Source: a virus (taxonomy: Duplodnaviria; Heunggongvirae; Uroviricota; Caudoviricetes). From it: 24,008 nucleotides of DNA. The notes beneath the pieces are model-generated. The model had not been told where the DNA came from. It did no database searches and saw only the letters and a list, made by a program, of their open reading frames with translations. The DNA is taken from positions 1 to 24,008 of the IMG/VR virus record IMGVR_UViG_2671180360_000013; one strand, written 5' to 3'. Positions 23,175 to 24,008 of this stretch are shown one piece after another (position 1 is the first letter of the stretch; each line of letters starts with the position of its first letter). A program made the translations under genes and the position numbers.

Positions 23175-24008
23175 ATGTCGATTAAACATTACGATGTTGT
23201 CAGGGCGGCGTCGCCGTCAGACCTTGCGGAAAAGCTGACACACAAACTGAAAGAGGGCTGGCAGCCATACGGCGGACCGGTTGCCATTACGCCGTACACA
23301 CTGATGCAGGCGGTGGCTATTGAAGGAGAGCCACAGGTCGGCCCTTCATCTGAGCCGGATTGGTACTACGTCATCGTACTGGCCGGGCAATCCAATGCCA
23401 TGGCTTACGGTGAAGGGCTTCCGCTGCCGGATTCATACGATGCTCCGGATCCGCGCATTAAACAGCTGGCGCGCCGCAGTACAGTGACGCCGGGCGGGGC
23501 TGCCTGCAGATATAACGATATTATTCCGGCTGACCACTGTCTGCATGATGTGCAGGATATGAGTACGCTGAATCATCCGAGGGCTGACCTGAGCAAAGGG
23601 CAGTACGGCTGTGTCGGCCAGGGTTTACATATTGCCAAAAAACTGCTCCCGTATATCCCGAATAACGCGGGGATCCTGCTGGTACCATGCTGTCGTGGTG
23701 GTTCGGCATTTACCCAGGGCGCGGAGGGGACATTCAGCGAGTCCACGGGGGCCAGTCAGGATTCGGCACGCTGGGGGGTGGGCAAGCCGTTATATCAGGA
23801 TCTGATTTCCCGCACAAAAGCGGCATTGCAGAAAAATCCCAAAAACGTTCTGCTGGCCGTCTGCTGGATGCAGGGTGAGTTTGACATGAGCGCCGCCACC
23901 CACGTACAGCAACCTGCGCTGTTTACAGCCATGCTGACACAGTTTCGTGCTGACCTCTCCGTGTTTAACGCGCAGTGCCATGGTGGCAGTGCTGCAGATG
24001 TGCCGTGG
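23175..24008 (+). CDS. NanS-p-like prophage esterase (DUF1737 N-terminal domain plus SGNH hydrolase), 3' end beyond window
   Basis: Open frame of 278 codons to the window edge, not in the track because it has no stop; N-terminus MSIKHYDVVRAASPSDLAEKLTHKLKEGWQPYGGP (DUF1737-like) and GQSNA serine motif; GGGAGA Shine-Dalgarno. Confidence 0.75.
   Translation, partial: MSIKHYDVVRAASPSDLAEKLTHKLKEGWQPYGGPVAITPYTLMQAVAIEGEPQVGPSSEPDWYYVIVLAGQSNAMAYGEGLPLPDSYDAPDPRIKQLARRSTVTPGGAACRYNDIIPADHCLHDVQDMSTLNHPRADLSKGQYGCVGQGLHIAKKLLPYIPNNAGILLVPCCRGGSAFTQGAEGTFSESTGASQDSARWGVGKPLYQDLISRTKAALQKNPKNVLLAVCWMQGEFDMSAATHVQQPALFTAMLTQFRADLSVFNAQCHGGSAADVPW

Follow-up and report, generated by a model that had tools for sequence, protein, structure and literature searches.

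A probable prophage sialate 9-O-acetylesterase gene of the NanS-p type in the late region of a mosaic lambdoid prophage without stx

The chromosomal NanS of E. coli (YjhS), a known Neu5,9Ac2 esterase of solved structure (PDB 3PT5), is exported by means of a signal peptide and is a member of the nan regulon, not of a phage late operon. Its prophage-borne counterparts, named NanS-p, include L0105 (z1466) of the Stx2a phage 933W and gp84 (vb_24B_21) of phage phi24B, and nanS-p is also present in non-Stx prophages (PMC10462455; PMC8065619). Seven NanS-p alleles from EDL933 and five from O104:H4 have been tested, those of non-Stx prophages among them, and every one is an active Neu5,9Ac2 esterase that enables lysogens to use Neu5,9Ac2 for growth and that deacetylates mucin glycans as well; norfloxacin strongly induces z1466, the 933W homologue, together with the late genes, and it ranks among the genes with the highest induction (PMC8065619). 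Here we describe the 5' part of such a gene at the end of a viral contig (IMG/VR record IMGVR_UViG_2671180360_000013), of which we analyzed a stretch of 24,008 nucleotides, hereafter the window.

The gene occupies positions 23175–24008 on the plus strand. It starts with an ATG at 23175, with GGGAGA just before it, and reads through 278 sense codons without a stop to the last base of the window, which cuts it after 45% of a predicted 616–617 codons. An N-terminal DUF1737 domain (residues 4–49, positions 23184–23321; Pfam PF08410, E=8.1e-16, 58 bits against a cut-off of 24) is followed by the N-terminal part of a SASA/SGNH esterase domain (residues 66–262, positions 23370–23960; PF03629, E=3.5e-13, 50 bits against 24.8), both scores exceeding the curated cut-offs. 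The esterase domain carries a GQSNA motif at residues 71–75 (nt 23385–23399), with Ser73 as the putative nucleophile. Among solved structures the sole match was 3PT5 (E=1.8e-91, residues 60–278), and among the PHROG families the product matched phrog_143 (E=9e-185), covering positions 1–287 of the 634 in the profile. The domain, structure and profile matches all lie far beyond chance. An earlier note on this DNA had proposed an esterase with DUF1737, an SGNH domain and GQSNA, of the kind encoded downstream of stx, and the Pfam and 3PT5 matches bear this out. Comparison with NanS-p proteins, which that note had suggested, gave amino acid identities of 69% to L0105 of 933W and 93% to yjhS of the Stx1a phage Stx1_699; the esterase CPT_434_71 of phage 434 is 99.6% identical across all 278 residues. 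No hydrophobic signal sequence was found at the N-terminus of the product (MSIKHYDVVRAASPSDLAEKL), and a search of NCBIfam returned no match for the esterase or for two upstream reading frames discussed below, a membrane protein and a small ORF. We regard the assignment of the gene to nanS-p as near certain; its intactness and physiological role are less sure.

The C-terminal lectin-like jelly-roll domain (6YP6; Pfam DUF6645) and the catalytic histidine lie beyond the window end and were seen in relatives. Phage 434, E. coli F8704-2 and UTME-10 encode proteins of 616–617 aa that are 99–100% identical over the shared 278 residues. The 617-aa protein of F8704-2 matches NanS (3PT5) over residues 60–379 (E=2.6e-124) and, over residues 421–613, the crystallized C-terminal lectin-like domain labeled "NanS-p" (6YP6, E=5e-29); another relative (L013) has the precomputed Pfam architecture DUF1737+SASA+DUF6645. 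The GQSN serine and an xxHFSS histidine of the relative align with positions 30 and 312 of the NanS chain, which become Ser19 and His301 once an 11-residue tag in 3PT5 is allowed for, and we take these two residues to be the catalytic dyad of NanS; the residue roles were reportedly established by Rangarajan and colleagues in 2011. The putative catalytic histidine is thus His359 in the 617-aa relative, which is 99% identical to the window protein over the shared part. The catalytic domain is homologous to chromosomal NanS throughout, which nevertheless lacks both the DUF1737 and the C-terminal lectin-like domains. With 933W L0105 and phi24B gp84 the three-domain architecture and the position between Q and the holin gene are alike; GQSN and other SASA blocks are shared with L0105, whereas the 933W type's C-terminal domain is much more diverged from that of the window's relative.

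Upstream of nanS-p lies a late control region of lambda type. The antiterminator Q (21013–21636, plus strand; Pfam Antiterm, E=1.2e-57) shares 203 of 207 residues (98%) with lambda Q and sits 1.5 kb before nanS-p, with genes for NinG and the NinI phosphatase further upstream. It is followed by a lambda-type late promoter PR' and qut region (21679–21707, plus strand; TTGACT, a 17-nt spacer and GAAACT) that aligns with the PR'/qut region at 44.5 kb in lambda. The -10 element GAAACT is weaker than TAAATT of lambda, and lambda homology stops near 21715. An intrinsic terminator stands just 5' of nanS-p (23062–23089, plus strand), with an 8-bp stem of which seven pairs are GC, a run of eight T residues, and a predicted energy of -17.7 kcal/mol (z=-4.3); phage 434 has an annotated terminator at the corresponding place.

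Three reading frames, all on the plus strand, lie between the promoter and nanS-p. The first, in the position held by stx in Stx phages, encodes a polytopic membrane protein of 252 codons (21874–22632) with five hydrophobic 19-aa segments and a match to phrog_1521 (E=1e-153); the annotation of relatives puts its start at 21889 (247 aa), and their precomputed Pfam label is PF27470 TfpB, although the protein itself had no family in our local Pfam copy, NCBIfam or PADLOC. The second is a small membrane protein of 52 codons (22718–22876; phrog_1470, E=2.5e-17), a moron annotated as DUF3927/TciB in relatives. The third, a 62-codon ORF with a TTG start and one hydrophobic segment (22933–23121), corresponds to the putative membrane protein CPT_434_70 of phage 434 and is without an NCBIfam or PHROG family match, and it is doubtful that it is a real gene. 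PADLOC gave no match for the cargo genes between Q and nanS-p, so a known defence system in this "stx slot" is unsupported. In otherwise similar late regions, the TfpB-like membrane protein alternates with TciA, with TciB always downstream; a literature search on tciA and tciB matched solely Trypanosoma typing.

On the other side of nanS-p, the holin, endolysin and Rz genes follow directly in phage 434, F8704-2 and UTME-10, as the earlier note had anticipated for the DNA beyond the window. In phage 434 these encode a class II holin (pinholin), a SAR endolysin and spanins, and a holin gene follows nanS-p in 50 of the 58 viral contigs with enough downstream sequence.

Domain content, homology, gene order and the promoter and terminator sequences are observed; from these, the lambda paradigm and the NanS-p literature we infer expression control, release and substrate as follows. 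With a probability of roughly 85%, the gene encodes a prophage sialate 9-O-acetylesterase that is expressed as a Q-dependent late gene, is released by lysis and acts on Neu5,9Ac2 and mucin sialic acids. The complete protein would comprise three domains, with DUF1737 at the N-terminus, an SGNH/SASA esterase resembling NanS in the middle and a lectin-like domain at the C-terminus. Upon induction, RNA polymerase modified by Q would proceed from PR' past the terminator at 23062–23089 and transcribe nanS-p and the lysis genes. The enzyme would probably stay in the cytoplasm, since it has no signal peptide, until lysis by holin and endolysin frees it. Outside the cell, Ser73 of GQSN and the downstream histidine would remove the 9-O-acetyl group from Neu5,9Ac2 and mucin sialic acids, and the freed Neu5Ac could be used by surviving sibling lysogens. 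NanS-p may act at the virion surface as well.

The prophage that carries this gene is a typical lambdoid mosaic, with an early half like that of Stx phages, the late switch of lambda and the late accessory module of phage 434. The early region (about 2000–20354; recombination, stk/cI immunity, O/P and nin genes) shares ~98% identity with that of the Stx phages AU6Stx1 and 933W. The DNA of the classical phage 434 (OL657226.1) matches the window at 99.1% identity from 21755 to its end; it has the genes for the membrane protein, TciB and the small ORF, then the terminator and the esterase gene ("SASA family carbohydrate esterase"), in unchanged order and with the class II holin next. The joint between the lambda-type NinI-Q-PR'/qut segment on the left and the 434-type late accessory module on the right falls at 21724–21754. 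In phage 434 the same module stands behind a Q82-like antiterminator, as against lambda Q and PR' in the window. Phage 434 also differs in being a free phage whose immunity region is its own, where the window has 933W-like stk/cI early genes.

The window contains no tRNA genes (ARAGORN), and tblastn searches with the A and B subunits of Stx1 and Stx2 against the whole window reached a best E of 0.3, without any match in 21637–23174. The earlier note was therefore right that stx and tRNA genes are absent and that the interval between Q and the esterase holds other genes, namely the membrane protein and TciB and perhaps the small ORF. The gene order is that of Stx phages, with morons in place of the tRNA genes and stx2AB that lie upstream in 933W behind a different Q, none of which occur in the window. 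The suggestion in the same note that the prophage is a relative of Stx phages with different cargo holds for the early half, given its ~98% identity to AU6Stx1 and 933W, but is not supported as a toxin swap, as Q and PR' are of lambda type and the DNA from 21755 onward is of 434 type. In the late region, DNA similarity to 933W and Stx1_699 sets in only with position 23162, 13 nt short of the nanS-p start codon, and DNA homology to either phage is absent between Q and that point. We also considered a Stx phage that had lost its toxin by simple replacement and rejected it: the Stx-type Q/PR' module is missing, and the whole segment of NinI, Q, PR' and cargo differs from Stx phages, beyond the toxin slot.

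The same stx-free arrangement is found in other phages that look like Stx phages. Escherichia phages JLK-2012 (O55:H7) and 2B8 have the order Q, cargo (TciA/TciB or membrane protein/TciB), yjhS/nanS-p and the lysis genes S, R and Rz. JLK-2012 has stk and early genes in common with the window and covers 63% of positions 1700–24008 at 97.8% identity; unlike the window, it carries three tRNA genes and another Q, and TciA takes the place of the TfpB-like protein. Phage 2B8 matches at 97.9% over 20900–24008. For a wider survey we used the 80 IMG/VR contigs whose alleles are nearest to this one (amino acid identity of at least 93%), restricting the count of upstream content to the 64 with more than 3 kb upstream. 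Thirty-three of these encode TciA, usually with TciB, 13 the TfpB-like protein with TciB and 17 none of the markers. Only one of the 64 encodes stx, so that a stx-free context is the rule for this allele. A nanS-p gene that adjoins Q is thus not to be taken for the trace of an earlier Stx phage, which is of some value for calibration.

Among 5426 complete E. coli genomes, 340 hold at least 80% of the segment 20900–24008 (the NinI end, Q, the membrane protein, TciB and the nanS-p 5' part) and 2547 hold parts of it; homologues of the 278-aa product were found in 352 phage records. As a near-identical gene with the same neighbors is present in the stx-free phage 434 and recurs across hundreds of E. 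coli genomes, the gene represents ordinary, already known biology. NanS-p genes have been studied by experiment and are standard accessories of lambdoid prophages in E. coli, whether or not these carry stx, and finding one here carries little weight as a discovery. Coverage of the window by any single complete E. coli genome does not exceed 72%, and neither the 10 places that encode an identical Q protein nor the 80 viral contigs include one that is collinear with the whole window.

An alternative that we consider unlikely, though more credible than those discussed further below, is that NanS-p is mainly a virion component, with DUF1737 hexamers in the capsid hexons displaying the esterase and lectin domains before autoproteolytic release. 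This would help the phage to adhere to O-acetylated mucus or to move through it, and the feeding of lysogens would be secondary; such a role is compatible with the enzymatic one. In phi24B, cryo-EM and proteomics located residues 2–57 of gp84 (DUF1737) to the hexons at the facet centres of a T=9 capsid, where they form hexamers that plug in through the anchor Tyr42 (the "tooth"), and the enzyme part is reported to be cleaved off (bioRxiv 10.64898/2026.04.10.717836). Because this homologue is reported to be capsid-bound and processed, lysogen nutrition is perhaps not the primary role of NanS-p (bioRxiv 10.64898/2026.04.10.717836). The window protein keeps the DUF1737 core, in which most of residues 4–33 are identical to the 933W type, and its gene adjoins lysis and morphogenesis genes, both of which favor a place on the virion. 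The anchor loop, however, differs in sequence and is three residues shorter (ITP---YTLMQ in the window and 434 vs. STAGYGAEFIQ in the 933W type), with a tyrosine (Y41) present, and the linker is 11 residues shorter. The domain and linker together occupy residues 4–62 (window positions 23184–23360), and the relatives concerned are L001, L003, L010 and L102.

The distribution of the allele among head types also argues against a tight fit to one capsid. The same allele (99–100% amino acid identity) accompanies gpD/gpE-like, lambda-type heads in phage 434 and UTME-10 and heads built from a 645-aa fusion of S78 protease and capsid protein in F8704-2 and Stx1_699, and BLASTP detected no similarity between the lambda-type capsid protein and the fusion. 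Where a large terminase gene was in range (19 viral contigs), it belonged to the lambda gpA family in 11 and to the Sp type in eight, and the 933W type accompanied this allele in none of the 19. Linked as it is to two siphoviral head types, the allele travels with the Q-lysis region and not with a head module. Tight co-adaptation of the allele to one capsid is therefore unlikely, and generic binding to hexons remains compatible with these data. The virions of 933W and phi24B are T=9 podoviruses, and by established capsid geometry the T=7 capsids of lambda type lack a hexon at the facet centre. The support for a virion role moreover comes from one preprint, on another phage. It is doubtful that NanS-p of the type seen in 434 and the window decorates T=7 lambda-like heads despite its shorter and different anchor loop. 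If it does, DUF1737 would serve as an adaptor for hexon pores in general, by which enzymes are mounted on many types of head, and phage 434 would have a mucus-active virion; if there is no capsid binding, DUF1737 would have another role in 434-type phages. The independence of the allele from head type thus bears on the recent claim of capsid binding by DUF1737, and is of modest value in that respect.

The reading as a lysis-released enzyme presupposes a complete gene, and we think it improbable that nanS-p of this prophage is a decayed remnant, shortened or interrupted past the window end and non-functional. Its 278 codons are intact and 99.6–100% identical to full-length genes, and the nearest relatives in this part (99.7–99.8% DNA identity) have intact genes of 616–617 aa. 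Decay does occur in this family: among the 80 viral contigs the ORF has at least 600 aa in 51, runs off the contig end in 17 and is shortened in 12, that is, below 600 aa in 12 of the 63 contigs in which its length is resolved. In phage 2B8 the annotated esterase ORF has just 323 aa, and a mobile-element gene follows directly. Nine of the 10 places that encode exactly this Q retain no more than a scar of nanS-p: their alignment with the window ends at 23199, so that the first 25 nt of the gene (23175–23199) are kept, joined to a sequence with ~80% identity to the gene's final ~85 nt and 3' flank that immediately precedes the holin gene (12165–12273 in L011; also L012 and L014–L020). This scar is an internal deletion, either recurrent or widely inherited. 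It shows that prophages can do without nanS-p and that the gene undergoes loss as well as gain, a finding of modest value.

The left end of the window also speaks for decay. Positions 1–1248 hold a host LacY-family transporter gene and island sequence extends to 1704, directly followed by early-left phage genes, which include an ORF for a dATP/dGTP pyrophosphohydrolase-DUF551 protein (2386–3195) and Ea22. No integrase or excisionase was found among the ORFs scanned at this end, so the prophage may lack its int end, be rearranged or be defective.

That the esterase instead targets bacterial surface glycans (O-acetylated O-antigen or capsule) for adsorption or progeny release, and not host sialic acids, is an open hypothesis in a review (PMC8065619) to which a weak PHROG match of residues 160–263 to phrog_25867 (E=2e-5), whose label is "tail protein", could be added, but it is very improbable, given that the catalytic domain aligns over its full length with the Neu5,9Ac2 esterase NanS (about E=1e-91, most residues identical), that the tested NanS-p alleles work on Neu5,9Ac2 and mucin glycans (PMC8065619), and that the gene is placed in the Q-to-lysis interval, away from the tail genes.

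Several features of the early half of the window lie apart from nanS-p. A eukaryotic-type Ser/Thr kinase is encoded in the immunity region (8967–10013, minus strand), next to a LexA-family cI gene, like stk in 933W, and it matches the PADLOC families mad6 and PD-T4-6 with E-values down to 7e-50. A 617-codon ORF of opposite orientation (16846–18699, minus strand) lies within the nin genes, flanked by NinE and a gene for an HNH endonuclease. It matches phrog_9230 (function unknown) and had no match in Pfam, NCBIfam or PADLOC; in relatives it has 590 or 611 aa or is split into ORFs of 275 and 310 aa, and it may represent a moron or a candidate defence gene. An Rfam scan of the window returned only the lambda cIII thermoregulator RNA element, a full-length match at 6827–6885 on the minus strand (RF01804, 88.5 bits, E=1e-20).
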